From NCBI GenBank assembly GCA_002256025.1, contig NKIB01012514.1:1-64000 (forward strand): a stretch of DNA of 64,000 bases, given 5' to 3'. The translations under genes were made by a program, and so were the position numbers. Shown here in pieces: positions 5,252 to 58,800 of this stretch. The stretch's first letter is position 1, and each line of letters opens with the position of its first letter. The notes beneath the pieces are model-generated. The model made no database searches, was not told the DNA's origin, and saw only the letters and a list, made by a program, of their open reading frames with translations. This DNA is from Asterionella formosa. Taxonomy: Eukaryota.

Positions 5252-7712
5252 ATGTATGAAATCATGCTGACAACTTAGAGATGATACTGGAACTACAATC
5301 ATACATTGTGTCATTTCGAGAACAGAATTGATGTTCTAAATAATACATTTAACTTGTTAAGCTACCAATCCAATAAGTCATCAGGACATTGCAACCAGGA
5401 ACCTGAAAAAAATTCCATTATCCAGCCAGCACTCAACCATTCTTGATCAGGGACCTTGATTTCTCAGAATCTGTTACCCACAGCTGCAAGTGGCCACTGG
5501 AACAAACACGACATCTTCTAGTCCAGTCTGCTCATATTGGTCCATTCTGGATGACTCCTGGTGAAGGACGTTCATGCCGACATGATGATGTCCCTAGTAC
5601 TAGTGCAATAAAAACACACCTCGAACTTGGTCGGAATTGCTTGCTGACTTTGCTGCAAGAGGAGCTAACACCAAAGCAAGGTAAAAACAAATGCGAGCTT
5701 CAGAATATTTTTTCGTAGTCTGAAATTGAAACTAGATACAAGACGAGAAATACAAGTCAAGGAATGCTGGGAAGGCAAGGCGAAGGGATTAATGCAAGTC
5801 TTGTGGGGATGAGGATTGATTGATCATGGCAAAACCTTACCTTTCTATACCACTTTAACTGGACCGAAAGATGCACATGAAATCGTCAACCATGATTCAA
5901 GTTTGAGACACATCATGTCAATGTGTACTTACATGTTGAAAGAGAATAAAGGAATGATAAGAAGATTGGCGGAGACATGCTTGGAGCTAGTTGCCTGCTT
6001 GAAGTTAGTAGTTGCCTTGAGGTCATCATTTTTACACCAAAGTGTCCTCTTCATGCAGAAATTTCTTGCAAAGAGGCAGGGAGTTGCATTTATGTGCTGT
6101 GTGTTCTGTCTCAAAGGGGCATACCAAGTGAACAAAACCTGTCACTGAAGGAGAAGTGAGGGGGGCAAAGGGAAGTTAGATCATCTATATCAGAGGAATG
6201 AAAGTTTTCTAGACAAGCTCATCAGTACTACATGTTGGCTTACTACCATGACATTCCATTGACTCTGGCCAATTCAATCCAGCACAACATAGCAGTGGTG
6301 CTATCAACATCATGTTCCAGTTGCAATCGAAGACCTATGTACAACAAATGCAGTGACGTAGTACAATATCTTCATGCCGGATCAAAACCTATACCGGTAT
6401 TGTAATATTGTTCGTAAGCGCCGAACCTAAAATGACCCCCAGCCAGCCGGGGCATATAATTTCACCTAAAATTCGCCACCTTGCTTCAGATGCAACATAT
6501 AGGTAAATCATTTAACTGCACCATGGTGTGTGTCCGTTGTTGGATAATGACGAAGCGGAATTTATTTAGCATTAAAATCTAATTTAAAACTATTTTACCT
6601 TCTTATGACCGCGATTGTCAACGATCTTGTTACTCGCAAAGCAAAACAAGTACCTATCGTAGTCCAGTTTAGTCGCTTTAACGGAACTGGGACTTTTCAT
6701 TGGCTGAAAGTCACTCTAGCGTCTGTCGAGTCTGATATAGTTGTGGTCAGCCAAATGATTCTTTCATGTTCCTGTGCAATATACAGACGAAGGATGTTGG
6801 GCTTGTTAGAGCAAGTACGAAATGTTCGAAGTTGTCCCAATCCCGAGTAAGTTTCCACGTACCTTGGATATCTGTGTGGTAGTAACGGTATGTGCAAGTA
6901 GTACCAAAACATATTTCTTCATATGCACTACATTCATTATTGCATCCTACCGGTATTCATATGCCTTTGGACCATTTCATGATGCTTGTTTATATTTATT
7001 CAGTATTATGTATACCCATGTACATTAAGTAATTCAATTTATTCGTTGCAATGCATATCTAAATCCTTATATGAGCAAAATGACATGATTTCTTCACATG
7101 CAACCATAACAACAAGGGGGAACACCGGAGTACAGGTATTTACATACTGCATCATACTCGCTATGTCCCAACAAATTTTGATACCGGTTGCCGCTCGCCT
7201 TGGGCATTTTACATCACACTCGACCACGTATAAATAATCTGTGTGAAAACAATATTCCGTTCTACACATTATGAATACAGACAATCCATTACCGGTATAT
7301 TTATGAGAAGTGATCGCTTTATATAAAAAGACAGGTTATTCACATTTTGTCAGGAACAGTTTCTTGATCATTGCCTTGTTACGATTCCCAAGTTGTACAG
7401 TCTAAAGCTACTAGCGACACTGACAGCCTTAATCTGCAGGTGTTCGTTCGTCGGATTGATGATGAGTTATTTAAGAACTTAAGCTTGTGTGGAAGTAAGT
7501 CAACTGTTACACAAATCAAGAGGTGCAAAACAAATGCATAATTTTTGTTCGCGGGTTAAATGCTCAATCCTTTAGTTTTGTTCTACAATAGCTTAAACCT
7601 TTCTGAGGAATCCTTTCTTATACTATACTTAATAGTATTTCGAGTCGACCGATTGGTTGAGAAGAATATTAGCTAGCGAGATCCTCGACTTTAACAGTGT
7701 CGTCGTCGTAAC

Positions 7713-10700
7713 ATGATGATTCCCCCAAACAAAACAAGCGACGAAGGATTCATCAATTTAGACATTGCGCTCACCGAATGCGATCGCTTTCCCTTGCATC
7801 ATATTGATAGCATTCAAGCAAATTCAGGCCACGTCTTGTATTGGAGGTATCCTTCTGGGACCATTGTCGCAGCGGACGCACTCATTCACCAGGTGATTTG
7901 GATCCGAAAGCATGGCAGCGACAAACGGAACGGGAAGGGGGAAAGCGCGGCAGAGACTGCGGTCACGCCGCAACCGCCCTTGTTGTTGGGAGCCTCCTTG
8001 AAAGACTGGATCCCGGAGATTCTGTACCATGACATCATGGACATTATCACGGGAATGGTGACGGCATGTTCCCAACGAGCCTTTCACTTTGCTACCTTTG
8101 ATAGTCAAACATTCGCCTTTTCAATCTCGACCACCTTCTCGGATTATTCCTTGATTGGCATGGAAATTGAGCTTGTCAAGGAACACGATAATTCCGAGAT
8201 ATTCTTGAATACTCTCGTGCATCTGGGTCGCATCTTGGAAAGCAATGAAGAGGAAGTGGTCCTGAACAGGGCCTGTGACATTCTTTTTGCATCACTGGGA
8301 TGCTATGATCGCGGGATGGTGCATCGAGTCTATGATGACTTATCGGGAGAGGTTATTCACGAAATCAAACATGAACACATTAGGTCCTCTTACAAGGGAT
8401 TACGTTATCCCAGTTCTGACATACCCCTTTCTGCTCGAAAACTCTTTGCGCACAACAGATTGCGATACATTCATGACACTGATGTAGACAGTATACCCTT
8501 GCTGTCAAACAGTGATACCCCAATCGACATGACACAGTGTCGCATGCGCGCCGTGGCCAAGCCTCATATTTTATATTTGCGCAATATGGGTGTGGTTTGT
8601 TCACTCTCCTTTGCCATTATTGTGGACAATGAGCTTTGGGGAATCTTTGTTTTTCATGGATATGGCAAGCCCACCAAGCCTTCACTGCACCAAAGAATTG
8701 CTTGCGAAACAATTACAGCCATAGTTTCGGTTCGCATAGAAACGATAGTGAAGAAAGCCCAAAGTGCGCGAATCATTCAGCTGCGAGAGATACTGATGCG
8801 TTTGAAAAACGATCAAAATGTCATTCACAACTTGCATGACTGGGGTAGCGAGCTACGTAGAACTCTTGATGCTGATATACTTGTGGGACACATTCAAGAC
8901 CCCCTTGAGGGCGAAGGGGATAATATCGTGCTTGGAGATGCTAGTCTTGCTCCATCCGCAGAGTTCTGGGCAAAAATGACTCTATCCCAAGCTTCTCATG
9001 AACTTTGTGTAATGTCAACTCGAGTTGAAGTTGAGAAACGAGGGTTGAACAAAGTCGATTGTCCCGCATCTGGTATCATGTACTTTCGACAGAACCGCAT
9101 GCACATCATGCTTGGAAGGGATGTACGCTCCAAGGATGTCGAGTGGGCAGGGGATCCTGATGAACCGAAGTTGCGCATTGGCGGGATTTTGCATCCTCGC
9201 CAATCATTCGCTATGTTTATGGAGAAAGCCCGTCAGGAATCACGAGCCTGGAATAGACACGACCTCCAAGTCATTTTCACTTTTCGGGACCACATTTGCA
9301 ATCATTCTCACAAGTGGATGATGGAATTGCTGCGGAACAATATCGATGACACCAATCAGAAATACATGCTGGCTATTGAAAGTGCACGAGACAACTATGC
9401 ATTCTTTGCACACATGAGTCATGAGCTACGGACTCCCTTTCATGGCGTGATGGGATGTCTAAACATTTTGAAGGACTCATTAGATGATTTGTCACATGAG
9501 GACGTGAAAAATCTTTTGGAAACAGCACTTACCTCGGGTCACCATATGATCAATTTGCTGAATGAAATTTTGAATATTTCCAAGAATACACATTTATCGC
9601 ATACTTGTTCAAATGATTCAGTTATTTACCAGACCTTAGCATTCGAAGTAATCTACGGAATGAAGACATTTGCTATGTCACAAAAAATTCCACTGACCTG
9701 CACGATATCCCCCAAGAACAAAAAGATTATTATTCACACTGACCGTACAAAAGTTATCCAGATCGTGTCCAACACTGTAAATAATTCCCTCAAATTTACA
9801 CGCAATGGAGGAGTCCACGTGCAATTTTCCCTTGTGAATACGCTTCACACAGCAATGGAGGAATGCGAAAAAGTGTCATCGAACTATTCCGGAGTCGTTT
9901 ACATCATGGAAGCTGGTAAAATATTCTCGTCAATTGACATGGCGTGGACTTACATGCAGAGCATGTCAAATATTATCAATCAGAAATGGATGTGCATACG
10001 TGTATCTGACACGGGATGTGGTATAGCACCAACAGAACTGGTCAATATGTTTGAGCCATTCATCCAAGCCAGTGCTGGGAGTAATCGGAATTTTCAGGGA
10101 ACAGGCCTAGGTCTATATATATGCTTGTCACTATGCCAGCAGCTCAATGGGTTCATTGTCTGTGCCAGTACACTTGGTGTAGGGACAGTCGTCCACATTT
10201 TTATCCCAGTTCAGATTGGAGACGAGACAACTGCTGTGGAGCTTGCTGATGTGAACAGAACAGCACCCCTTAAGGACATAGCCAACATCATACTCATGCG
10301 AGGACCCATCATGATTGTTGATGACAATAGAGTAAATGTTCGAATCCTTCATCGAGCATTGCAAATTTCTCTCAAAGCTGCGATGATCAATCTTGATGTG
10401 TTCACAGTCGAAGGAGGCGATGCTGCCATTGCTTTCTCCAAGGACACCCAACCTTCACTTTGTATTATAGATTACTGCATGCCTGAGACAGATGGGATTG
10501 CAACTGCTAGCACTATTCGAGCTTACGAGGAGGCCCAGGGCCTCGAAGCATCACACATTTTGTGTTTCACAATCGACGTCACTGATCAGACCAAACAGCT
10601 GGTGCTACTTAGGTCTGGTTTTGATGATGCCATTTCGAAACCTCCATACAATGAATTCATTGCTGATCTAGTTAGCCGAATGCATGTAGTTGAAAATATG

Positions 10701-10754
10701 GAGGAGAGCATCACAATCAATGAATCAGAAGCAGAGAAGAATTCTGCAATCTAG
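7713..10754 (+). CDS. DPH: Diatom-type phytochrome (PAS-GAF-PHY-HisKA-HATPase-REC hybrid histidine kinase)
   Basis: N-terminal ECDRFPLHHIDSIQ (biliverdin-attachment Cys as in BphPs), YPSSDIP, PHILYLRNMGV, LWGIFVFH, PHY tongue WAG...PRQSF, H-box SHELRTP, N-box NSLKFT, DTGCG, GTGLGL, and receiver VDD...IIDYCMP...KP. Uninterrupted 1013-aa ORF. Confidence 0.95.
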   Translation: MMIPPNKTSDEGFINLDIALTECDRFPLHHIDSIQANSGHVLYWRYPSGTIVAADALIHQVIWIRKHGSDKRNGKGESAAETAVTPQPPLLLGASLKDWIPEILYHDIMDIITGMVTACSQRAFHFATFDSQTFAFSISTTFSDYSLIGMEIELVKEHDNSEIFLNTLVHLGRILESNEEEVVLNRACDILFASLGCYDRGMVHRVYDDLSGEVIHEIKHEHIRSSYKGLRYPSSDIPLSARKLFAHNRLRYIHDTDVDSIPLLSNSDTPIDMTQCRMRAVAKPHILYLRNMGVVCSLSFAIIVDNELWGIFVFHGYGKPTKPSLHQRIACETITAIVSVRIETIVKKAQSARIIQLREILMRLKNDQNVIHNLHDWGSELRRTLDADILVGHIQDPLEGEGDNIVLGDASLAPSAEFWAKMTLSQASHELCVMSTRVEVEKRGLNKVDCPASGIMYFRQNRMHIMLGRDVRSKDVEWAGDPDEPKLRIGGILHPRQSFAMFMEKARQESRAWNRHDLQVIFTFRDHICNHSHKWMMELLRNNIDDTNQKYMLAIESARDNYAFFAHMSHELRTPFHGVMGCLNILKDSLDDLSHEDVKNLLETALTSGHHMINLLNEILNISKNTHLSHTCSNDSVIYQTLAFEVIYGMKTFAMSQKIPLTCTISPKNKKIIIHTDRTKVIQIVSNTVNNSLKFTRNGGVHVQFSLVNTLHTAMEECEKVSSNYSGVVYIMEAGKIFSSIDMAWTYMQSMSNIINQKWMCIRVSDTGCGIAPTELVNMFEPFIQASAGSNRNFQGTGLGLYICLSLCQQLNGFIVCASTLGVGTVVHIFIPVQIGDETTAVELADVNRTAPLKDIANIILMRGPIMIVDDNRVNVRILHRALQISLKAAMINLDVFTVEGGDAAIAFSKDTQPSLCIIDYCMPETDGIATASTIRAYEEAQGLEASHILCFTIDVTDQTKQLVLLRSGFDDAISKPPYNEFIADLVSRMHVVENMEESITINESEAEKNSAI

Positions 10755-11326
10755 CAAGACTTTCAGGGGGGTCAATAGTTGCAAATTAGGTGGAAATGCA
10801 AGGCAGTCACGACAGGACTAGACAAAACAAAGACTTCAGCAATGATCTAATGATCTAGGAAGCTTGCTTATCTCGTTGCTATGAATAATAGAGTTTCATT
10901 TTTCGAAATGGCACAATAACCTCTGCTCTCCATTTATGGTTGCTTTATTCAAAGCTTTATCTCGAGCTAGGGTTTAAAAACAATTGATTCAGAGTAATCA
11001 AATTCCCACTCATCACAACACGGACATAACACGGTCGTACCTGGTACCTGGTAAATTGTACCCTGAGTACCAGTATGCACATGATATATAAATCTGGACG
11101 GAGCGTTCGCCTTGTGGTTGGCTGGACATTGCAGCAAGAATATTCATTCACTATTAACTTATCTACCGGAATACGTAGAGTTTTGTCTACATTATGGCTG
11201 ATAAAAGTTATAATTTGTGTCGTTCCCCTACACATATAATTAAATATACATTTTTCTCTACCGGTATATAAATTTTCCCATAGCTACTTTTGTTCAACCA
11301 TCATTTTCCTTTGATTTGACTTTACC

Positions 11327-11980
11327 ATGACTCTAGTTCCTGTTGCTCTCCTCGTCGTTGTTGTTGAATTATTCATAGTTGTGCCCGCCATTGCATGGCA
11401 ATCCTCCAAGGACGCCTCGAACCGTCGAAAGCTGATCTTGGCAACTCCTGCCGCTTTGTTACTGCCCGTAGTAGTGTCGTCCGCTGTGGCTCAGCCAGTC
11501 GAATTCTCCAGTATTGGGACCCAGGCGCCACTTCCGGTTGGAGAAACAAACTCCTTCGTCACTCTTTCCAATGGTGTCCAGATCAAAGACTTTCGACTGT
11601 CAATGTCTCCAGACGCACCCACAGTAGGGCCAGCGTCGCGAATATCTATTCAGTGCACTGGTCGATTATTGAATCTGAACGGAATCATTTTTTATTCTAC
11701 CAAGAACAACAACGTTGATGGGTTCGGGCCCGAACCATTGACTGTAACTCTTGGAAGGAACGAACTCTTGCCCGGCCTTGAGTCTGGGATAATTGGTATG
11801 AAAAAAGGGGGGATACGACGAATCATTGTGCCTGCTGATTTAGCATATTCCAAATTTCCTAACCTGGAACCACAGCCAACAAGTGTGCTTGACCAGCGTG
11901 CGTTAGATAGTGTTGTGAAAAATCCACGACGAGATGCTACTATTTTGTTTGATGTGAGTGTGGAGAGAGTGAAGTTCTAA
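11327..11980 (+). CDS. FKBP-type peptidyl-prolyl isomerase, predicted thylakoid lumen
   Basis: LPGLESGIIGMKKGGIRRIIVPADLAY and ATILFDV are FKBP motifs. Tripartite presequence: signal peptide AIA-W, then RRKL + hydrophobic stretch + AVA. Confidence 0.9.
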   Translation: MTLVPVALLVVVVELFIVVPAIAWQSSKDASNRRKLILATPAALLLPVVVSSAVAQPVEFSSIGTQAPLPVGETNSFVTLSNGVQIKDFRLSMSPDAPTVGPASRISIQCTGRLLNLNGIIFYSTKNNNVDGFGPEPLTVTLGRNELLPGLESGIIGMKKGGIRRIIVPADLAYSKFPNLEPQPTSVLDQRALDSVVKNPRRDATILFDVSVERVKF

Positions 11981-29032: not shown

Positions 29033-32000
29033 ATGAGCAGTCACAGCGCCAGTCACACTTCGCCACCTCCAGCACAACGCGAACATAGCACGTCTTACCC
29101 TGCTCCGGCCTATTTGAATTTCACTCCTGGTGGATTGTCCTACAAGAAGACAGACTGCGATCTCTCGTCGCACTGGTATAATTTAGCTGACTACTCTGCT
29201 TCCGCTTCTACTGCTGCAGCACCAACAAGCCCACGCCGCCGTGCAACCCCGGATACTCTCATTCTCAAGGCTAAGTACGCTGATGACGTTCTGCGTCAAT
29301 ACAACTTGCTGTATGGTCGATCTATGGTGGCTCCTCACTTTCTTCCATCACTTGCACTCCTGGCATCGGCTGCCTTTGATCGCTTGTCTGGTGTCCCTCC
29401 GCTTTCTGTCAAGCGCTGGGCTGATGCCATGGTCTTGGCATACTTGGAAAATATTGACAAAGAATCTCCCCCACTCTCGGAAGTCCACTGCTGGACCAAC
29501 GTTACCTCCCCAGATCACGCTGCCGCTATACCTTCGGAGACAGTGGTTGCTGTCCTTCGAAACATGCTACACACCAGTACCAACCGGGGCCACGCTCCAA
29601 GTGCACCCCGGCCATGTGGATACGTTTTCAAACGAGGAGACATTGCTTGGAATTGCCGAACCTGTCAAACCGACCCGACCTGCGTCATTTGCGACACTTG
29701 CTTTAGGAATTCGAACCACGAGGGGCATGAAGTATACTTTCATCGAACTACACCCGGTGGCTGTTGTGATTGTGGTGATGCGGAGGCATGGAAGAGTAGT
29801 GGATGCTGTCCGTTGCACAGACACATTCAAGATGAATCAATACACGAAAATGATCCCGAAGAGGCGGTTATGATGGCATTGAGAGGACAGAAACAGGGGA
29901 TTGATGCCTTACAGGACCCATCAACCAAGTTGCCTGATAAGTTAGCGGCGGCTTTAGGGGTTGTCATTGGAGCAGCTGTTCACGCGTTGGTGCAAGCGGT
30001 TGACGGTGCAGGAATAGGAGCAGACCCAGTTCAGTGGAAGCTAAGGTGGACAGATGAAGCTTGTCGAATTAAGAATATGGCGATCAATCGTGATGATTAT
30101 TACCTATGTACTGACTATACCAAATTGGAAACACCACAATCCCTATTGCAAAAGGGAAATTCGATGCCAAAGGATTTCAAGCTGCACCTACGGCTTCACA
30201 ATGATGATGTCCATACCTTTGATGAAGTTATCGATGCATTACACGAACCACGGCACAACCGACTGCCCGAAGATGCCCCACTCCCCCCGCTGGTGGCCAA
30301 TCGAGATGATGCGGAAGAAATGACACACCATGTGGATGCCGATGGCCAAGTCATGGTCAAGTCCTACCAGTCCATCGCTTTGGCCCTGCAGGGATACCGA
30401 CGCCTCAAATCAAAACAACGAGGCTTGCACTGTGCAGTTGTTGGCACCTCTGTAGTAGACGCCGAAAATCGGGCCAGGGCATTGACTTTGTGGTTGTCGG
30501 AAATTTCAGCTGCCCATCCTGCAGCAGCGGCATTGGTCGTACACGCTCTAGTACAACTCAATCACGACTTGGCGGGTATTCAAGTCTGGCATGAAGCGAG
30601 ATCCATTCCGGCTTGGGCATCCTTGATAACAGATGAAGATGACCTTACAACATGTCGTCGTAGATTTTACGCCTTTCCGCCGCACTTGGCCTCTAGTTAT
30701 GTTACGAGAGAAGACGCCGAAACCTTGCACCGCTTAGGAATGGAGATGAACTCGACCATGTTTCAAGAAATGACGGGGACAGATCCCAATTTTTATTCAA
30801 ATGTCCCGTATCGTTTGCCGTCAGAGCGCTATCGAAAATCTCCGCATGCTCTATGGGGGACCCTGCCGTCAACCTATAGCGACTCAATTACTCCCTCCAA
30901 TAAGCATCCTTTGCTCTATAGGTTATCGACTGGACTTTTTGATGAAGTTGCTGGAACCATGCAGAATCAACTCACCGAAGAAGTTTATGTGGTTGATACA
31001 GACTTGCGAAAGCAAGAGGAGTCAGAACGAATCCTGGCAAGTGTATATTCTCACAAACTGCCGGGCGTGCACATGATAAGTGGAGTTGGAACCTTGAGAG
31101 TTCAGGATATCACGGCAGCTTCACCTCCCATGCCGAATCCCATGCAATGGAGGCACTTGTTGCAAACATGCTCCTTTCGAGCTCCAGTCACTCCACTGGC
31201 GTTGTTGCTCTTGCTGGATCCGTACCCGACCAAGCAAGTCAGATTTGTTTTACATTCGCTCTTTTTGTCTCTCTTGGTAGATTCGCGATTCAAATGTCGA
31301 TTTGCCGCAGCACTTGGAGCTGTGGCTTATCGCCCGTTAAGCACGCTGTTTTGTGCTGGTGTTGGAACTGAAGCCGACACTCCTCTTGGGTTTACCGTTC
31401 AAATTTTCACAGCAGGATCGTTGGTACGAGCACTCGGGAATGCGACAGCAATTGAAAAGCTGCTCAAGTCAGATAATGCAGGATGTGATTCCGAAAGCAC
31501 AGCGCCTATTGGTGTTTTTGCCATGCCGCTTGCCCACAATGTTGTTCGTTGCATTCACACAAACTTATTGGGTGCCACAAAAGAAGTCCACATGATTTTG
31601 AAAAACACTATTACGGACAATGATGAAGAAAGTCACGAGGAGGATGCAAGGAGGAATGACAATTTACTTCCGGCTCTCACATACCAAGCCGGGGAACATC
31701 CACTATCTATTTCTTTACCTGCTGCACCTGATGATGGATATTTGGACTCGCGTTCAACGCGTCACAAGCGTCTCCCCCACCTGCTACGAGACTTGGAGTA
31801 TGTTATTGAGACACCAGGAACGGCGATTCGATTGTTACTACCTCAAAAATATCCTATGTATCGAAATATCCAAAGTTCATCGTCATCTCCCATCGTCGAA
31901 AACGTCGTTGAATTTGCTACTGTCTACGCTCGCTTGCTTCGAACAGCCCAGGGAATGGATCCACAGAAACGAGTTATTTCTGGTGGGCACGTTGAGTACG

Positions 32001-35000
32001 AAAAGAGCAGGTGGCTAGATGCATTTGGCCTAAGTTTGAATTTTGCCGGCACAAGGGATGCTCTCGCCGAAAGTTTGACAAATGCCAGCAGTTCAACTCT
32101 GGCCCCGTACAGTGACAATGGTTCTCATCTTGCCAGTATTCAGAATGCTATGGGTAATTTGTTTGTTGCGCTGCTGAGGGAACTGAAGTTGTGGCTCTAT
32201 CGAGAAGGTATGCTAGAGACCGGTTTGCCATTACCGCCAAGTGGAACCCATGGTGGGATGGACTCCTCGCTGGTAGAAGCGTTGCAACGAAGCACGTTGC
32301 ATGTCTCAAGCTCCCAGCTTGGAGCAGTTGCTGCTGCGTCAATGTCAGAGAGCTCAAATGGAGGAGGAGGTGCCCACGCAGTAGCTCTCGCTTGCGCAAC
32401 TGGTGTGAAAATGACTGAAGCGCAACTGGAGCTTATTGAAGGCGCCCTTCGGCTGGAAGACGCGAGACGTCACCATCGTGAAGCGAGTGATGATTCTGTT
32501 CCACCAAGTGGGCCGCCAATGGGCGATTGGCTGCGAATTCCTCACTCTCCGCTTGGTGGTGACAATCTCTCGTTTCACCTACCTCTTCATCGATCATTGG
32601 CGAAGAGTGTCCTTAGCATATGTTATGTTGTTGTACCTGAATCCGTGCGAAATTCCAATCCATACGGTTGGTGGAAACTTCCTGTCCTTGACGACAATTA
32701 TGACGCTGGGGATCAAAGTGTGACAGGCAAGCAACACCCACTAGTATCGCTAATACGTCCTACATTGAGATCGTCAAATTGTCGAGTTGTTTGGGCAGCA
32801 GGACCTGATTGTTCATCAGCGGAAGCACATCATAGAAGGACTCGCTCGAAGAATGTATCTGCCAACATAGCGGCAGCAAAAATAATTCATTCCTTGGCCG
32901 ATCATCCAATCAGATGTTTAGCAGCGGCACAGCAAATCGAACGACACCTTTGGGCAAGAAATGGTACATCCACCGCAGGAATGGCTCTAAACTATGCAAG
33001 TTCGCCGCTGTGTCGATCTTTCCGCGATCTTGATATCACTCTGGTTCAGCTTTCGAGCGCTGGCATGAGCATGGGTCTTGGTGCACGGCGTGTTTTCTCG
33101 CTTTTAGTTAGCCGTTTCAGTATGGATGGATATCTCTGTGATCCTGAACGACGAATCCAGGGGGCATCGAGCCCGACAAGCAGTGGAAATTATGCTGGTA
33201 ATGGTAGTTGGGTGAACCCCCCAAGGATGCAAGATACGGAGCATGCGGTGGCACTGTCCGAGTCATTCTTCACAACCATGTGTATTGTAGTTACGGAGCT
33301 CCCTTCCCCTCCCCCAATTTCTCCTTCGGACGAGGTTGCATTGCGTAGTAGCCTACGTCGTGAACTGCTGCATGCACTTGCTGCTGAACCACGTTCGCAC
33401 AGTGAGGCCATGGAAGCAGCCACTAGTGCGGCGAGTAGACGAGACGAGAGCGCTGGCATTTCTGGTGGAAGCTCTGGTGGTGGTGCTCTTGGTGATGTCT
33501 TTACTCAAGTACTGCGGGAAGTTGGACAGCAGAAGAATCAAGGCTCGTCACGGGCAACTTCTGGTCCATCAGCTTACGAGCTAAGACCTGAATGTAGCGA
33601 CGAATATGATCCGACTTTTTTTCATCTTCGCCGTCAAGACCATCAGCATGCCATGGACACAATAGCGCGCTTACGAAAGCAAAAGGCAGGAAAAGATGCA
33701 GATTCAACTTGCTATCCTGTCGTTTCGTTGCCTCCAAAATCGCATCCCCGGTTCGTTGCATGCCGCCTATTGCTGCACCTCCCAAGCATGGATGCAGCTC
33801 TGCGTAGAGCCCTTCTATTTGCAGTCACGGGTGGTGCTTGGCTTCCTCCAAATGAACCCGCGCCTCCACCGTGTGAGAAAGACGACGACCCGATGCAGGC
33901 AGAATCGTCTGAATGGACAACAGTAGCAACGGGTGCGATGATTGCAGATTATGGTGGCGCTGTCCCAGTATCCACCTTGGGAAGAAAGTTAAAAAGAACA
34001 GGGTCTTCCTCCGTTAGTAGGAGAAGCGGCGATGTTGTGGATTCTTCTCCCTTTTCGCCTGCAGTTGTTGCCGGATCATCTGTCTCGTATCTTGAGGTTC
34101 TCCAGCTTCTCACACTCCAAGTTCACACTCTTGAGGAATGCGCATGTCTTCATCGCTTGCAGCCCGACCTTGATGAGGAGGCTAAGATTTTATCTTCTGG
34201 TCTATCGATCAATTCTTACCTCGGCCGATTAACGATGGTTCCTGAGAGTCTAGTCCACGTATGGGCATTTCGTCCATACCCTGAAGGCCCAATTCCATCA
34301 AAAGGTAGTGGCGAAGATCGCGGGTCTCTTTTAGGACTTTTGATCACTTTGTATGAGCACCGAGCAGACCCCGGTGGCGACGACAAATCTGGCCACGGAG
34401 AGAGCTCAAGTGGCGATGAAGGTCATGGTGGATCTAGAAATCTTTCCAACAGCGGACTGAAATGGCTACTTCGATTTGTAAATGCACTTGTGGATGGCGC
34501 TCCAAGTGTCGCTGCTGCAACAAAGAGTGCGACTTGCGGTGTTCCGATTCAAGCTGCTATTGGGGCTGCAGAATCAGATGGGACGTCATGGACAATTAAT
34601 TCTGCCATTCGCACAAAGATTAGTGGAATGCTAGCAAATCTACCAGATCTCTGGCCAAATGAGGACATGTCAGAGGTCGATGACGATACTGACCGCTTGA
34701 ACGCGAAAAGTAAGGAAGCGAGAAAGGCTGCTCAGCAGCGAGTAATGGATATGATGAAGAAGAAGCAAAGCGCATTTGCTGCGACAATAGCTCCCACGGA
34801 AAGTAATTTGGAAGGAAAGATGGATGTGGATGAAGATGAACAAGATTTATGCATCATCTGCAGATGTGACGATGCTGACGGCGAAAACAACGGACCGCTC
34901 GGATACCTAGGTCACGTACAACGATCGAGGTATGCACACATGAGGTCGTCCACTGAAGCCCCCAAGACAAACCCCCTTTTTTCGACCTATAGAGTTTCTG

Positions 35001-38000
35001 GACATCGAGGTTGTCAACTTCGGACCACAGAAGCAATGGACTCAGAGCCTCTTGTTTGTCTTCCAACCGGAAGTGTCGTTACCATTATGAGTTCGACGGT
35101 GTGCGATGCATACGATATCTTGTCAAGACGTGTTTTCGTTAAACACGTAGAAACAGACCCAGAAAATGGTGACAAGGAGACGAAGGGATGGGCCAGCGTA
35201 CAGTCTTCTGAAGGTTATGTCATATTGAGCCCGCTAACGTCCCTTTGTTACACCAACACTCGATGGGGAAACACTCGGCCAATCATTCGCCAATGTGGCC
35301 ATGCGGCTCATTTACGATGTGTGGAAACTCATACTCTATCACTACACCAGCGAGCAGCTGGGGAACAGCCTTACGATGGCCGATTTGCTGCCAACATTGC
35401 GGATGGTGAATTTTTGTGCCCCCTATGCAAGCAATTATCTAATATCCTGATCCCCCGCGATGACTGTGCACTCAACATGCAAAAGGAAAGTGCCAAATCT
35501 GACCAGAGCGAAATTAAGGAGACCGACAGTGAGATCGATGAGTGGGCGATGTTGCATAAGCGCCTTGCTAAAAAAATAAAGATAGACTCGGATTATTTTA
35601 GTGAAACTGGAAAGGAAGCCCTTCATCAATTTGGTTCAAAATTGGTTCAAGCAATGACAGTCCCATGGGAACGAGCGACAATGGCTAAGGCGAGAAAACA
35701 AAGCCGATGGCATCCTGCCATTCAAAGGTGGGATTTCGAGGATTTCCAGCTCCCTGATGCTGAAGGTGCCGGTGGGACTAATATTCGCGTTCCTTTGATC
35801 AAGGATTTCCTCAGTCGTATGCGACAGCTACACATCGCGTGGGCGGCAATCGGTCACAGTGCCGCCGCTGTTGAGTGCGCTTCAAGAAGTTTGGAAGAAG
35901 TTCTATCTTTCGGAACGTTTTCCCAGACCTCTGACCCATGGAACGATTTTAATGTAGTCTGCCAAGACTCGCATCCGATGCTCCTTGAATTGAGACGGTC
36001 GCTTGTTGCTACTTCTGGTTTCTATGATCTACTTGTGGAAGAAATCGATGAGAGATTTTCCCGGGACGACAAATCTCCGGAAAAATCCTTTAATTTTCTT
36101 GGTTCATGCTTGGCGGATATTCTTAGCGGTAACTGTCATTTTGCAACTGGAAATTTGCGTTTGAGCGTTCAGTCGAAGAATGCGTTGGTGATATGGAGCC
36201 AGGTGTTTGCTTTGATTGCTGCGATGCCTTGCCATGTGTCCAGAGATGGAACTCTGTCACAGCGCCACGAGGCACGGGCAACTGCAGCTGAAATGTGGGT
36301 CATCCAAGGCTTAGGGACTGAAATCAGGACCGACTCTTCCGAAGTTACCCAGGGCAATACTATCTCTTTGTTCGCTGATACTCCTGTTCCCCTTGCAATC
36401 CAACAAGTGCACTCACTCACTGGTTCAACAATGCCGCGCAACTGGGGAACCATATTTTCTTCGTTTGTTGATGCCGAGGCTGATGCTCCCGTCCCTCTTG
36501 CAATTCAGCAAGTGCGCTCTCTCACGGGTTCAGATATACCACGCAACTGGGGAACTGTATTTTCTTCAAGTCTGTTTAACCCTAACGAGATAGTTCCTCC
36601 TTTCCGGCCTGGCGTTGCATCTACATTTTTGTACATGCCATTATTGTCTTGGGACTTCAACACTTTGTCGGGGGCTATCTTTTCAGCGATGCTTGCCAGA
36701 AGTGACGAAACGCCCCCTTCCAGTATTGAGTTATTATTGGCAGCAAAGCTGTTAATCATAGGGAGAGTCGTTCAAGCGATCATAACTCCGTCTGGATACG
36801 AGCTTTGCGAAGAAGACGACGAGTGCGAGTACGAGGAATTCTGGTCCGAGGACGAAATAGAGAAAGAAAGCGAAGCCTTGGCAAAGCTGATACAATTCTG
36901 TAGATCTTGTGTCCAGTCACTTTCAGTTAACCCAGAAGGAAATTTCAATCCTACATTTGGAGGAATTGAAGCAATTAAGCACTTTAGTGCTGTTGGTCGC
37001 TCTATCCTGCCGTTTGCTAGATCCCTAGTGTTGATCCTTCGCGCCACCAATAGTGCTGTACGACAACGCGGGAAGAAGTGTAAGTGTGAACCTGAAAAAC
37101 CAAGTAGGAAAGGGCAGGATCTTGATGCCTCCCTTGTGAATGAGCAACTTATGACGTATGAGGACGGATTCCTAATGATGAGAGAGCTCGGGATCCCGCT
37201 TCCGTCGGTAATTATTGATGAAACCGATTCGAGCAATTGGATTCCTTTGATCAAACGTTGGATTGGGGCATCTATTGCACTCGAGCTTCATCATGGCTCT
37301 AGAGGAAAGTCTTTAATTCCATTGTTAAGCCCTGAATCTGTTCGCCCAAGGCGCAAAATGAGCCCTATGACTCATACTTTGAAGAAAGCTCCTCCAAATT
37401 TTATGGAAGGAGAGGTCAACGATTCTTCTATAATGGAAACGGGAGCCAATGATGATGGAGGTGACGAACATGCAGACCTTGATTTTCGTATGAATAATGA
37501 TGATGTCGATATATCCTTAATGGGAGAAGAGGATGACGAAATGATAGATGAATTTGGCCATACCGACGACTTGGAAGTTATTGATACGGGACGCCACTCG
37601 GCAGGAACTGAAACGCATGATCAGTCTTCAGATGAAGAGAGTTATTCAAATCCCTTTGATGAAAAGCAGCTTGATTTTGCTAGTGTTTCTAGATCCGCAA
37701 TCATTCCCTATCAACCCAGCTTGCTGGCCCGTGAAGAAATTGGACCGGGTACTCGAGGTGCGCCTCTAGAGTGTTCGGCTGCGTCCACCGTGATGCGTGA
37801 CATGAGTCATCTTGGAATGATTCATCGCAAGAATGGTGCAACTAAGTGCCTTGTGCGCCTACCCAAGTCATTCGTGGAACTATACTCGTTAGTCAACAAA
37901 GTCAAAGGACGCGATGACACTGCCGCCATGGATGTCGATGACGATGGTGTGTCGTCCGAAACAGCTATTTGTTTGCTGACTGGTGCTGTGATGCGTTCGG

Positions 38001-38332
38001 GTTCTCCGCGGCGGTTATATGTTAGAACTTCTCGTCCGCCTGGTGCATGTACGCTCCATGCTCGACAAGTTGGATCTGGGATAGGCATTTTCTTCTTGGT
38101 CCAAAAATGCACTGTCCTTTTGATGCACAATAATAAGTCTGCTTATTCTGCATCATTATATGTCGACCAGCACGGGGAAGAAGACCCTGGTTTGAGGAGA
38201 GGACGGCCTCTCTTCTTGAATGAGGCCCGCTACCGAGCGCTCGAAATGCTTTGGAGGCAGCAAGGAATACCCAGAGAGGTAGCTCAAATCCGATCCACAT
38301 CTGATCGAGTGATTCGCGACAATTGGTATTAG
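29033..38332 (+). CDS. UBR1: UBR-box E3 ubiquitin ligase (N-recognin, UBR1/PRT6-like), 3099 aa, apparently intronless
   Basis: UBR box CGYVFKRGDIAWNCRTCQTDPTCVICDTCF..SNHEGH...GGCCDCGD, ClpS-like LHNDDVHTFDEVI, RING CIIC...CGHAAH..C...FLCPLCK and C-terminal YVDQHGEED.GLRRGRPLFLN. Confidence 0.95.
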   Translation: MSSHSASHTSPPPAQREHSTSYPAPAYLNFTPGGLSYKKTDCDLSSHWYNLADYSASASTAAAPTSPRRRATPDTLILKAKYADDVLRQYNLLYGRSMVAPHFLPSLALLASAAFDRLSGVPPLSVKRWADAMVLAYLENIDKESPPLSEVHCWTNVTSPDHAAAIPSETVVAVLRNMLHTSTNRGHAPSAPRPCGYVFKRGDIAWNCRTCQTDPTCVICDTCFRNSNHEGHEVYFHRTTPGGCCDCGDAEAWKSSGCCPLHRHIQDESIHENDPEEAVMMALRGQKQGIDALQDPSTKLPDKLAAALGVVIGAAVHALVQAVDGAGIGADPVQWKLRWTDEACRIKNMAINRDDYYLCTDYTKLETPQSLLQKGNSMPKDFKLHLRLHNDDVHTFDEVIDALHEPRHNRLPEDAPLPPLVANRDDAEEMTHHVDADGQVMVKSYQSIALALQGYRRLKSKQRGLHCAVVGTSVVDAENRARALTLWLSEISAAHPAAAALVVHALVQLNHDLAGIQVWHEARSIPAWASLITDEDDLTTCRRRFYAFPPHLASSYVTREDAETLHRLGMEMNSTMFQEMTGTDPNFYSNVPYRLPSERYRKSPHALWGTLPSTYSDSITPSNKHPLLYRLSTGLFDEVAGTMQNQLTEEVYVVDTDLRKQEESERILASVYSHKLPGVHMISGVGTLRVQDITAASPPMPNPMQWRHLLQTCSFRAPVTPLALLLLLDPYPTKQVRFVLHSLFLSLLVDSRFKCRFAAALGAVAYRPLSTLFCAGVGTEADTPLGFTVQIFTAGSLVRALGNATAIEKLLKSDNAGCDSESTAPIGVFAMPLAHNVVRCIHTNLLGATKEVHMILKNTITDNDEESHEEDARRNDNLLPALTYQAGEHPLSISLPAAPDDGYLDSRSTRHKRLPHLLRDLEYVIETPGTAIRLLLPQKYPMYRNIQSSSSSPIVENVVEFATVYARLLRTAQGMDPQKRVISGGHVEYEKSRWLDAFGLSLNFAGTRDALAESLTNASSSTLAPYSDNGSHLASIQNAMGNLFVALLRELKLWLYREGMLETGLPLPPSGTHGGMDSSLVEALQRSTLHVSSSQLGAVAAASMSESSNGGGGAHAVALACATGVKMTEAQLELIEGALRLEDARRHHREASDDSVPPSGPPMGDWLRIPHSPLGGDNLSFHLPLHRSLAKSVLSICYVVVPESVRNSNPYGWWKLPVLDDNYDAGDQSVTGKQHPLVSLIRPTLRSSNCRVVWAAGPDCSSAEAHHRRTRSKNVSANIAAAKIIHSLADHPIRCLAAAQQIERHLWARNGTSTAGMALNYASSPLCRSFRDLDITLVQLSSAGMSMGLGARRVFSLLVSRFSMDGYLCDPERRIQGASSPTSSGNYAGNGSWVNPPRMQDTEHAVALSESFFTTMCIVVTELPSPPPISPSDEVALRSSLRRELLHALAAEPRSHSEAMEAATSAASRRDESAGISGGSSGGGALGDVFTQVLREVGQQKNQGSSRATSGPSAYELRPECSDEYDPTFFHLRRQDHQHAMDTIARLRKQKAGKDADSTCYPVVSLPPKSHPRFVACRLLLHLPSMDAALRRALLFAVTGGAWLPPNEPAPPPCEKDDDPMQAESSEWTTVATGAMIADYGGAVPVSTLGRKLKRTGSSSVSRRSGDVVDSSPFSPAVVAGSSVSYLEVLQLLTLQVHTLEECACLHRLQPDLDEEAKILSSGLSINSYLGRLTMVPESLVHVWAFRPYPEGPIPSKGSGEDRGSLLGLLITLYEHRADPGGDDKSGHGESSSGDEGHGGSRNLSNSGLKWLLRFVNALVDGAPSVAAATKSATCGVPIQAAIGAAESDGTSWTINSAIRTKISGMLANLPDLWPNEDMSEVDDDTDRLNAKSKEARKAAQQRVMDMMKKKQSAFAATIAPTESNLEGKMDVDEDEQDLCIICRCDDADGENNGPLGYLGHVQRSRYAHMRSSTEAPKTNPLFSTYRVSGHRGCQLRTTEAMDSEPLVCLPTGSVVTIMSSTVCDAYDILSRRVFVKHVETDPENGDKETKGWASVQSSEGYVILSPLTSLCYTNTRWGNTRPIIRQCGHAAHLRCVETHTLSLHQRAAGEQPYDGRFAANIADGEFLCPLCKQLSNILIPRDDCALNMQKESAKSDQSEIKETDSEIDEWAMLHKRLAKKIKIDSDYFSETGKEALHQFGSKLVQAMTVPWERATMAKARKQSRWHPAIQRWDFEDFQLPDAEGAGGTNIRVPLIKDFLSRMRQLHIAWAAIGHSAAAVECASRSLEEVLSFGTFSQTSDPWNDFNVVCQDSHPMLLELRRSLVATSGFYDLLVEEIDERFSRDDKSPEKSFNFLGSCLADILSGNCHFATGNLRLSVQSKNALVIWSQVFALIAAMPCHVSRDGTLSQRHEARATAAEMWVIQGLGTEIRTDSSEVTQGNTISLFADTPVPLAIQQVHSLTGSTMPRNWGTIFSSFVDAEADAPVPLAIQQVRSLTGSDIPRNWGTVFSSSLFNPNEIVPPFRPGVASTFLYMPLLSWDFNTLSGAIFSAMLARSDETPPSSIELLLAAKLLIIGRVVQAIITPSGYELCEEDDECEYEEFWSEDEIEKESEALAKLIQFCRSCVQSLSVNPEGNFNPTFGGIEAIKHFSAVGRSILPFARSLVLILRATNSAVRQRGKKCKCEPEKPSRKGQDLDASLVNEQLMTYEDGFLMMRELGIPLPSVIIDETDSSNWIPLIKRWIGASIALELHHGSRGKSLIPLLSPESVRPRRKMSPMTHTLKKAPPNFMEGEVNDSSIMETGANDDGGDEHADLDFRMNNDDVDISLMGEEDDEMIDEFGHTDDLEVIDTGRHSAGTETHDQSSDEESYSNPFDEKQLDFASVSRSAIIPYQPSLLAREEIGPGTRGAPLECSAASTVMRDMSHLGMIHRKNGATKCLVRLPKSFVELYSLVNKVKGRDDTAAMDVDDDGVSSETAICLLTGAVMRSGSPRRLYVRTSRPPGACTLHARQVGSGIGIFFLVQKCTVLLMHNNKSAYSASLYVDQHGEEDPGLRRGRPLFLNEARYRALEMLWRQQGIPREVAQIRSTSDRVIRDNWY

Positions 38333-55871: not shown

Positions 55872-58800
55872 GGTTGCGGCCCCGGCTTAACCCTAGTTTG
55901 GAGAAAATATCGCTAGGGTTGTAAATTCGGCGTGGAACAGGGAGTTTGCTGCTATGAGTTCCCATGATTCGACTGTCCATTTGAATATTTGAATTACCGG
56001 TAAATTGGAGTCAACGCCAGATAGAGTTCCATTTTGAGAAAACGAAAATGATATTTTAAACGTTATAATATACTGGTATGGATCAAGAATCAGACAGCTG
56101 AAGTCTATCGAGATGCTTTGACTCAGGTATTCAGTGTTTATAATACCGGAGGATTTAAAATTACAACAATCCACTGTGACAACGATTTTCGACCTTTGAT
56201 GGAACAAATTTCCAATGAATTTCAAGTCACTATGAACTACGCAAACCCACAAAAACATGTTCCAGAAGCGGAGCAAAATAATCGAGTGATTAAAGAATGC
56301 GTACGCACAGGTTATCATCAATTACCTTTCAAACCTTTGTCACAACTGATGATTAAGATTCTAGTGACAGAATCTGCAAAGAAACTGAATTTCTTTCCGG
56401 CAAAGAACGGGATATCCCCATACTACAGTCCTTGTATGATTTTACATAAACAAAACCTGGACTATGCTCAACATTGCCAGTATACATTTGGCACTTATGT
56501 CCAAGCACATGAAGAACCTGTGTTTTCAAACACTAATGCACCATGCAGTCTAGATTGCATTTATTTACGCTACAATGACAACATGCAAGGAGGTCATGAA
56601 TTATTACACCTACCTACAAATTCATTGATTACTAGACAATCAGTTACTCCTCTACCACTTACCCCAGCAATCATGAATCGAATACACACCCTTGCTGTAC
56701 AGGAAAATATGCCAGATGGTCTCAAGATATCAAATCGAACGGGACAACTTTTTTATGATAGTGCTTGGATTGCAGGAGTGGATTATGATAATGAAGCATT
56801 TGAAGATGCACAAGATGAAGATTATGAAGATCAACACGCTAGTGATGACGAAAGCAACGATGAACTTCTCGGAGAAGAAGAATATGATGAAATGACTCCA
56901 GATGAAATATATGAAGCAGAACAGCTCGAATTAATTAACAATATCCAAGAGGATGACCCTGAACCTGAGGGCAACAATGAAAATAATGTTGAAACAAATG
57001 CAGATGAAATCCAAGATGAGGATGAAGAACCGGCAAATGAAACTGAAAATGAAGAGGCAATGTTAGAAGTCAATCCAAGTACTCAGGATGACACAGACCC
57101 AAATGTTTGAACTACAAGGTCTGGAAGAGTCTCAAGACCGCCATCAAAACTAACTATGGTCCAACATCATTTGCATACCCAAGCACACTGTCAAGAAGAA
57201 TACATGACTGATAATGCGAAAGTGATCGCAAAGACAATGTGTTATATGAATGAGATGTGTATTGATAAAGAAGCATTTCACTTTGTTCAGTCATACAGCT
57301 TAAGGAAAGGCCTCAAGAAATTTGGCCAGAAAGGAAGAGACGCTTCGTATAAAGAAATGAAACAACTGCATGATAGAGTTGTATTTGAACCAATTAGGAT
57401 TGAAGACCTAACCGACATCAAAAAGCGACGTGCAAAGGAAATTCTAATTGTTTTGGTTGAAAAGAGAGACAAGAGCATTAAAGGCAGAGCATGTGCCAAT
57501 GGCAGTTTGCAACGTGAATACATGGACAGAGATGAAGCAGCTAGTCCAACTACCATGACTGAATCTGTTATGATAACAGCAACAATTGATGCGAAGCAAA
57601 ATCGCGATGTTATGACTGCAGATATACCCAATGCATTTGTGCAGGTGGATGAAGATGAGAAAGAAAAAGGGGAACGAATCATTATGAAGATTAGAGGTTT
57701 ACTTGTCAATATGTTGACAGAACTCAGCCCCGAGACTTATGAAAAGTATGTTGAGTATGAAGGGAACAACAAGGTCCTACATGTTAGGATGATCAAGGCA
57801 CTATATGGCATTTTACAGTCATCATTATTATATTACAAGAAATTTCGGAAGGATATTGAGTCAATTGGATTCAAGGTCAACCCATATGATCCATGCGTTG
57901 CAAATCGCATTTTTAATGGCAAACAGCACACAGTTACTTGGCACGTAGACGATTTGAAATCTAGTCACGTGGACAGCAAAGTGAATGATCAATTTTTGGA
58001 ATGGCTCAAAAAGAAATACGCTTCTGACGAAAATGGTGAAGTCAAGGTTATGCGTGGAAAGAAGCCAGATTATTTGGCGATGACACTAGATTACTCTCTT
58101 TCAGGAGTGTTGAGGGTGGACATGTCCAAATATGTGAAATCAATGATTGATGATTTTCCAGACAAACTTGAAGGAGTAGGAAAATTCCCATGGTCAGATA
58201 AATTGTTCACAGTTGATAGCTACATCAAAGAAGCTTGAATTTGAAAAAGCGAAAATATTTCATACTTTTGTTATGAAAGGAATGTTCCTATGTAAGCGAG
58301 GAAGACAGGACATTCAACCAGGAATTGCATTTCTGGCAACCCAAACTACTGAACCGAATGTAGGCGATTGGGAAAAATAGTCAAGATCATGAATTTCTTG
58401 AAAGCAACTCAGAATGAGGTTGCATCTAGCTATGAGTGCTGATGACACTCAGAGTATTAAATGGTACGTTGATGTGGTGTTTGCAGTACACAAAGATTTA
58501 AAAGTCACACAGGAGCTACACTGTCACTTGGAAACGGAATTATTTGTTCTATGTCTACAAAACAGAAAGTGAACACTAGAATTTGGACTGAAGCAGAATT
58601 GGTTGGTGTCGATGACATTATATCAAAGGTGTTGTGGACGAAATTATTTATTGAAGCACAAGGACACAAGGTGACTACGAATGTCATTTACCGTGACAAC
58701 ACTAGCGCAATGAAGCTAGAAGCAAATGGAAAAGCAAGTTCAGGAAAACGCACGCAATATTTCAACATCAAGAATTTTTAAATTACTGATCTTATTGAAA

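Follow-up and report, generated by a model that had tools for sequence, protein, structure and literature searches.

A natural histidine at the D-ring gate tyrosine site of an expressed diatom phytochrome from Asterionella formosa

We found that a diatom phytochrome gene in a 64,000-nucleotide stretch of Asterionella formosa DNA (assembly GCA_002256025.1, contig NKIB01012514.1, positions 1 to 64,000; the whole stretch is hereafter the window) encodes a histidine, His204, at the site of the tyrosine that gates ring D of the bilin in nearly all of the homologs sampled. The gene occupies positions 7713-10754 of the forward strand, to which all feature coordinates below refer, as an intron-free coding sequence (CDS) of 1013 codons plus stop, taken from the list of open reading frames (ORFs) and its translation. 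The histidine codon CAT lies at 8322-8324, the D-ring gate site (Cph1 Tyr176, Agp2 Tyr165) as located by structure alignment and a homolog census. His204 is very probably a real, natural and expressed variant. The reading that we favour, at a probability of roughly 45%, is that the product would be a biliverdin-binding diatom phytochrome (DPH) with poor or no Pr-to-Pfr conversion, an output that depends little on light and no bright fluorescence.

The exchange of tyrosine for histidine at this site is among the best-known phytochrome mutations, giving the constitutive YHB allele in plants and the fluorescent Y176H variant of Cph1. In the literature searched, which excludes most subscription journals, we found it as a laboratory product only and found no report of a natural histidine at the gate tyrosine. 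A natural, expressed case, accompanied by tyrosine-bearing near-twins that serve as built-in controls, makes two questions testable, namely why the mutation acts differently in biliverdin and in phytobilin phytochromes, and whether light-blind phytochromes have a place in natural signalling. The case also carries work on diatom phytochromes, marine so far, over to lake diatoms: by the labels of the sequencing runs that contain it the window gene is a freshwater one, whereas the characterised DPHs are marine in the accessible parts of the sources.

Rarity of histidine at the gate tyrosine site

The GAF strand CYDRGMVHRVYDDLSGEVIHE (= CYDRGMVHRVYDD) begins at residue 197, and His204 lies 32 residues ahead of Asp236 of the DIP motif. 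Upon searching solved structures with phmmer, His204 paired with the tyrosine of Agp2 (ydrvmiYrfqed in 6g1y_A) and also with the residue given as X in 9g8c, which is named as the oCNF165 mutant of Agp2, so that the site is that of Agp2 Tyr165. The rows of the Cph1 structures (2vea_A, query residues 196-530 on chain residues 168-506; 8rvx_A, 195-530 on 167-506) share an offset of 28, and residue 204 therefore corresponds to residue 176 of Cph1, assuming a gap-free alignment over those eight residues. An initial annotation, made from the sequence alone, had aligned the CAT codon at these coordinates with the conserved tyrosine, and its coordinates, codon and strand alignment proved right in all of these comparisons. 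The photosensory module of Agp2 is the closest solved structure (6g1y and PAiRFP2 entries; E = 2.5e-34, TMq 0.74-0.75); it differs from the window protein in that Agp2 is a bathy bacteriophytochrome with tyrosine at the site, and the two are 23-24% identical.

Two further residues of the strand are changed in the window protein. In the alignments and the census, Val206 (GTC) and Tyr207 (TAT), together at 8328-8333, take the places of phenylalanine and asparagine in close relatives, and Val206 lies on the same strand face as His204 by the alternation expected along the strand of residues 200-206 in the AlphaFold2 (AF2) model. Tyr232 (8406-8408), located by its offset of four residues ahead of the DIP aspartate, occupies what we take to be the site of Cph1 Tyr203 and DrBphP Phe203, position 203 of DrBphP presumably being phenylalanine; Cph1 likewise has tyrosine there, as the partner in a 'tyrosine dyad'. 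The gate tyrosine of GAF strand beta-1 is missing from the window protein and the remaining sequence hallmarks of the family are present, and homology still places the protein in the diatom DPH clade.

The census covered 303 other proteins, 288 of which have a BLASTP alignment over the site, and its sample consists of the best 150 of 4859 library matches together with word-index matches, not of the whole superfamily. Tyrosine occupies site 204 in 285 of the 288 homologs, a majority that takes in the non-diatom homologs sampled, bacterial ones included, and the rest comprises one leucine and two histidines. The leucine belongs to P0204, a phytochrome-like histidine kinase of 1167 amino acids in which the DIP aspartate is replaced by tyrosine, and which is probably a degenerate, non-photochromic relative. 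One of the histidines, in P0297, was rejected as a false alignment to about 40 non-homologous N-terminal residues of a fragmentary gene model, and P0302, with the motif HRVY, is the only genuine second case. The model P0033, which is truncated at the N-terminus and begins two residues ahead of the site, has leucine in the MAFFT alignment and is absent from the non-tyrosine rows of BLASTP. Furthermore, position 206 is phenylalanine in 284 of the 288, with valine restricted to the window protein and P0302, and position 207 is variable. At the Tyr232 column, tyrosine (139/288) and phenylalanine (149/288) are both widespread; the clade of the window protein has tyrosine, whereas most DPHs have phenylalanine. 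In our alignment A1, all 31 other diatom sequences have tyrosine at the gate and at least 95% have phenylalanine at position 206, as against His204 and Val206 here. The initial annotation had named one outcome that would undo its interpretation, that histidine is common at this site in diatom phytochromes, and the census shows the opposite.

When comparing close relatives, we observed no copy of the exact window protein (P0001 in our set) in a collection of 15 billion proteins. P0302, which has 1011 residues, comes from another assembly and is grouped with P0002 in clustering at 90%. Its identity to the window protein is 90.3%, it reads MVHRVYDD across the site, and its C-terminal module differs from the window's. 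The other near relatives read MVYRFNDD (P0301, 92.3% identical; P0002, 88.8%; P0003 and P0004, about 85%). The step from YRFN to HRVY amounts to three substitutions within four codons in photosensory modules that are otherwise nearly alike: over residues 70-600 the window protein has 20 differences from P0301 and 15 from P0302. A second cluster, Ser177-Asn178-Glu179 (8241-8249), found by protein alignment and in read contigs, stands where relatives have Cys-Gln-Val; Cys177 is common to all 11 close relatives, and Ser-Asn-Glu is private to the window protein among the proteins compared. With 20 changes placed at random in 531 residues, two three-change clusters within four residues arise with P = 0.0014 and one such cluster with P = 0.065. 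Such clustering suggests mutation of several nucleotides at once, conversion over short tracts or selection acting locally. Within the window neither 14-mer has a second match at two or fewer mismatches that could have served as a nearby template. Among metagenome contigs, none of 18 pattern matches was confirmed as a related DNA locus, and no stretch was found with a degenerate 26-nt pattern across the site. Among shorter proteins, none of 43 matches is a near-identical fragment carrying the site, the best having 71% identity.

The clustering bears on an alternative that we consider improbable, in which the receptor remains photochromic and His204, Val206 and Tyr207 jointly reshape the ring-D pocket, retuning absorption, quantum yield or dark reversion to lake light. 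Three replacements within four codons, two of them on one strand face, in a protein that differs from P0301 at only 20 of 531 residues would suit such a retuned pocket, as would the low probability of two clusters and the possession of Tyr232 in place of the phenylalanine of most DPHs at the partner site. The near-universal tyrosine of the census argues the other way, since tuning normally avoids the site. Moreover, the cluster may equally be one multi-nucleotide mutation, a single cluster reaching only P = 0.065, and the second cluster at residues 177-179 lies in a non-conserved place, which favours mutation over selection.

Expression of the gene and a possible second gene form

Twenty runs from 13 studies contain the stretch, eight of them RNA and most of them labelled as freshwater or lake water, and the highest share of sampled words in any run is 0.82. 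We compared contigs of two RNA runs (X2 and X13) and two DNA runs (X6 and X9) over positions 7000-11400. An intron of 97 nt with GT..AG ends in the 5' untranslated region (5'UTR), at 7495-7591, is spliced in both RNA runs, each from a different study, and not in either of the DNA runs; the X13 and X2 contigs break at 7494 and resume at 7592 (joint 7494>7592), and the part of the upstream 5'UTR exon present in them spans 7424-7494. The splicing in X2 and X13 means that the gene is transcribed and processed, which disposes of the possibility, raised in the initial annotation, that it is unexpressed.

The run X2 is a polyA metatranscriptome of a lake, and only one of its contigs (7899-9587) lies over the site; this contig has 16 differences from the window, 15 of which are listed; among those listed none falls at 8322, 8328, 8331 or 8241-8248. 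The X2 mRNA therefore agrees with the window at the Ser-Asn-Glu cluster and in two or more of the three HRVY letters, almost certainly in all three. HRVY is accordingly seen on three backgrounds, namely the window, P0302 and the X2 RNA contig. The contigs that cover the site in X6, X13 and X9 have 3, 31 and 10 differences, respectively, beyond those listed, and one or more of them may carry YRFN; at the second cluster all three differ from the window, at 8241, 8244, 8246 and 8248. The initial annotation had also asked whether reads might show the tyrosine codon TAT, and the answer is divided: none is seen among the differences listed for the X2 RNA contig, and the contigs of X6, X13 and X9 could hold it.

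All four runs depart from the window at 7948, 8184, 8857, 9049, 9277 and 9280, and the window allele therefore has the private replacements Ala79, His158, Arg382, Asn446, Phe522 and Thr523. These departures, together with the absence of the exact protein from the protein collection and a word share that never exceeds 0.82, would be in keeping with a base-calling or assembly error that made the CAT codon. We regard such an artefact as very improbable. To turn YRFN into HRVY takes three separate substitutions, the same three occur in P0302 from another assembly and on a sequence 10% different, and the X2 RNA contig could conceal at most one of them.

The reads also point to a second gene form. 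In X13, X6 and X9, some contigs match the window from 7756 onwards and have another sequence ahead of it; further contigs of X6 and X9 pass 7756 along the window's own upstream region, and in X13 a contig with the window's spliced 5'UTR reaches 7700. The other upstream sequence agrees with the different N-terminus of P0002, which fits a second form of the gene. Furthermore, the X13 sequence of the 3' kilobase (9846-10882) shows no difference from the window, at a depth of 80.8, or about that of the window-type 5'UTR contig (36.8) plus as much again, and the sole X13 contig over the sensor differs from the window at 46 places. We infer for X13 two expressed copies whose contigs merge over the stretches that they share, with alleles, paralogs or two organisms all possible as their source. 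Over 9499-9645, just 3' of the H-box, all four runs show an increase in summed contig depth, of about 2- to 4.6-fold, as expected if several phytochrome genes share that stretch.

We next considered signs of changed constraint at the 139 near-invariant columns, defined by agreement among 95% or more of the other diatom sequences. The window protein deviates at 6 of the 139 (Y204H, F206V, L382R, Y909S, Y952F and A954I), and P0002, P0003 and P0004 deviate at none. Over residues 90-600, using three outgroups, 12-14 replacements are unique to the window protein and 2-3 to P0002 (chi-square 6.3-9.0).

These figures are also what would be seen under an alternative that we hold to be unlikely but that carries real weight, in which a canonical tyrosine-bearing DPH is kept as a paralog or second allele while the histidine-bearing copy, redundant and under relaxed constraint, was hit at the gate and is drifting to loss. 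The six deviations against none in the sisters and the excess of unique replacements suit it. So do the existence of YRFN sequences (P0002, P0301, P0003 and P0004) with an almost identical photosensory module and the co-occurrence, in X13, X6 and X9, of contigs with the different sequence upstream of 7756 and contigs with a window-like one. Among the listed read differences in the CDS (n = 29), 20 are non-synonymous and 9 synonymous, and the listed differences private to the window, a small count, number 6 non-synonymous to 2 synonymous, a near-neutral ratio. Such counts are far from those of a strongly constrained receptor. They weigh against the light-uncoupled receptor that we favour, and decay of a redundant copy would account for the faster protein evolution just as well.

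Against decay, the frame at 7713-10754 contains no stop codon in its 1013 codons by the ORF list and translation and no frameshift, and the catalytic and chromophore motifs are kept except at 204 and 206. The gene is expressed in lake metatranscriptomes, and the occurrence of HRVY on three backgrounds indicates that it has persisted and spread or recombined and is not the lesion of a single strain; moreover, a second copy within the same genome remains putative. The initial annotation had judged that the gene does not look like a decaying pseudogene, and we agree to the extent that it is not an obvious one, its frame being open and its motifs kept. Were the copy merely decaying, it would still offer a dated snapshot of early photoreceptor loss.

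Predicted consequences for photoconversion and signalling

The likely chromophore can be read from the presumed attachment site. Cys23 (7779-7781) is the sole cysteine among residues 1-60, and its context, TECDRFPLHH, fits the family consensus ECDRExLH in alignment A1; we take it to be the site of biliverdin attachment, a role assumed from what is known of bacteriophytochromes. The residue preceding His285 is proline, so the cysteine of the GAF domain is absent there and Cys23 stands in the N-terminus instead. By these two features, the window protein is a phytochrome of the biliverdin type. The pocket residues Asp236, His285, Tyr288 and His315 are all kept, with Pro238, Tyr288 and His315 invariant and Asp236 and His285 nearly invariant across homologs; the two pocket histidines are presumably residues 260 and 290 in DrBphP/Cph1 numbering, and Tyr288 presumably the further hallmark Tyr263.

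In the reading that we favour, histidine replaces the beta-1 tyrosine that lies against ring D of the bilin, and the near-invariant phenylalanine two residues on becomes valine. Biliverdin would still be bound at Cys23, conversion of Pr to Pfr would be poor or absent, as in Cph1 Y176H and phyB Y276H, and the output of the histidine kinase and receiver would then be largely uncoupled from light. Because the active form of DPHs, that of Phaeodactylum included, has been modelled as a Pr-Pr dimer (preprint 10.1101/2023.01.25.525482, in the part accessible), a copy held in Pr would tend towards the 'on' state irrespective of illumination. If the copy no longer had a photochemical role, this would also account for the faster change of its photosensory module compared with that of the tyrosine-bearing sisters. 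That His204 impairs photoconversion we put at even odds. Val206 may make room for the imidazole, or may belong to the same mutational event.

The published effects of the exchange, given here as they appear in the accessible parts of the papers, form the basis for this expectation. With Y176H, the fluorescence yield of Cph1 goes up from 2.4 to 14.5% at the expense of photoconversion (PMC11924222), and YHB, which is phyB Y276H, is described as 'photochemically inert' yet constitutively active (PMC13174385). The tyrosine-to-histidine variants of both Cph1 and phyB adopt a helical tongue like that of Pfr (PMC11924222). Both share the window protein's exchange at the corresponding structural site and are photochemically near-inert; they are laboratory mutants with a phytobilin on the GAF cysteine, whereas the window protein is natural, of the biliverdin type and changed at two neighbouring residues as well. 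DrBphP Y176H, a bacterial laboratory mutant, shares with the window protein the same substitution, the binding of biliverdin and a histidine-kinase output. It is cited as non-photochromic and without gain in fluorescence, the substitution being said to be one that 'does not allow photochromicity' (PMC11035067) or that 'precluded trans formation' (preprint 10.64898/2026.03.03.708993), although the secondary sources disagree on its phenotype.

The initial annotation had proposed a spectrally altered, fluorescent or constitutively signalling variant. Bright fluorescence with biliverdin is not expected and is the least likely part of that proposal, because the protein is of the biliverdin type and the gain from tyrosine-to-histidine exchange is, in the parts of the sources accessible, not seen in biliverdin bacteriophytochromes (PMC11924222, PMC8980088).

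Several points weigh against a receptor that has lost photoconversion. One source is inconsistent in the parts accessible, agreeing with blocked conversion in DrBphP and stating elsewhere that the exchange does 'not block Pfr formation' (PMC8980088), and ReBphP Y168L/T retain some Pfr formation (preprint 10.64898/2026.03.03.708993, in part). Val206 and Tyr207 could offset the exchange and so bring photoconversion back. Finally, the Pfr-like conformation of tyrosine-to-histidine variants could mean either 'on' or 'off' in a DPH. The retuned photochromic receptor discussed above gains from the same literature, in that biliverdin phytochromes bear changes at this tyrosine better than Cph1 does (ReBphP Y168L/T; PMC8980088, in part). 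It loses from the spectra of seven recombinant DPHs and PtDPH, which are nearly identical (Pr 680 nm, Pfr 767 nm; preprint 10.1101/2023.01.25.525482, in part).

A more far-reaching version of the light-uncoupled receptor, and quite an improbable one in our judgement, is that freshwater diatoms keep a locked, YHB-like DPH beside the canonical one, either as a light-independent kinase or as a heterodimer partner that resets sensitivity to depth or shade, with HRVY selected and moved by recombination or gene conversion. If a locked copy did enter heterodimers, its pairing with a tyrosine-bearing partner would change the light dependence of the active Pr-Pr dimer.

Domain architecture and genomic neighbourhood

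The product of 7713-10754 is, by its sequence, a phytochrome of the diatom type with the order PAS-GAF-PHY-HisKA-HATPase-REC, the same order as in the DPHs of Phaeodactylum (PtDPH), Thalassiosira and other centrics, which likewise have an N-terminal cysteine for biliverdin. The Pfam matches for GAF (27.4 bits), PHY (50.2), HisKA (51.8), HATPase_c (68.2) and Response_reg (46.1) are all above the curated cut-offs. The nearest named proteins are diatom phytochromes, from Mayamaea (47% identity), Seminavis (47%) and Nitzschia ('diatom phytochrome 1', 41%). Upon searching the 64-kb window with tblastn, we found no second phytochrome-like stretch.

The N-terminal PAS-like domain lies at approximately 7782-8132; it has no Pfam match at E <= 0.01, and is placed by AF2 confidence (pLDDT mostly above 90) and by its position within the Foldseek match to PAS-GAF-PHY modules. 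The GAF domain follows at approximately 8160-8747 (Pfam PF01590 over residues 181-337, and the AF2 model) and contains the DIP motif of residues 236-238 at 8418-8426, found by motif location, with aspartate at Asp236 in 284 of 288 homologs. The PHY domain with its tongue spans 8775-9332 (Pfam PF00360 and motif location), where the WAGDP (478-482) and PRQSF (495-499) motifs include the invariant columns Trp478, Pro495 and Phe499. The histidine kinase module, comprising HisKA with His570 and HATPase_c with its N, G1 and G2 boxes, lies at 9399-10217 (Pfam and motifs), and the receiver domain with Asp920 at 10308-10646 (Pfam PF00072 and motifs). Further motifs were located as PHILYL at residues 284-289, HGY with His315, and the H-box SHELRTP with His570. 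The initial annotation had described the N-terminal cysteine, DIP, PH..YL, PRxSF, H-box and receiver motifs as intact, and each of them is indeed in place, as Cys23, DIP, PHILYL, PRQSF, His570 and Asp920.

AlphaFold2 gave a model of residues 1-545, from a 46-row alignment, with a mean pLDDT of 83.9 and a pTM of 0.81, and its best Foldseek matches are the PAS-GAF-PHY modules of Agp2, DrBphP and Agp1 (E of about 1e-31, TMq 0.66-0.75, TMt 0.82). In this model the tongue segment with PRQSF is a helix, at a pLDDT of 47-62, and the best fold matches are Pfr-state structures of the bathy phytochrome Agp2. We rejected the helical tongue as a sign of a Pfr-like state, its confidence being low, its alignment dominated by tyrosine and the feature independent of residue 204.

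The C-terminal half differs among relatives. Within the receiver, 10563-10580 reads CFTIDV as against YTAD in other diatom phytochromes, so that Y952F and A954I fall at near-invariant columns; P0301 has the same CFTIDV receiver type as the window protein. Among P0001-P0007, P0301 and P0302 the sensor is near-identical, and the kinase and receiver (9513-10754 in the window) are of divergent types in mosaic combinations. P0301, for instance, joins a HATPase of the P0002 type to a window-type receiver, and P0003 joins a P0002-type sensor to a C-terminal part that is nearly that of P0006 (11 differences in 404). These mosaics are either genuine, through domain shuffling or gene conversion, or the product of metagenome contigs that are chimeric. 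We rejected them as proof of recombination, as short metagenome contigs may be chimeric over the very conserved H-box stretch.

The neighbours of the phytochrome gene are ordinary eukaryotic genes, encoding an FKBP, a RecQ helicase, a UBR-type ligase and a tubulin-tyrosine ligase. An ORF at 57156-58235 has a copia-type reverse transcriptase domain (RVT_2, E = 4.8e-11) and is a retrotransposon remnant or copy. Finally, an unbroken ORF of 3099 codons at 29033-38332 encodes an E3 ligase of the UBR-box N-recognin type, with zf-UBR, UBR1 winged helix and PRT6_C domains.

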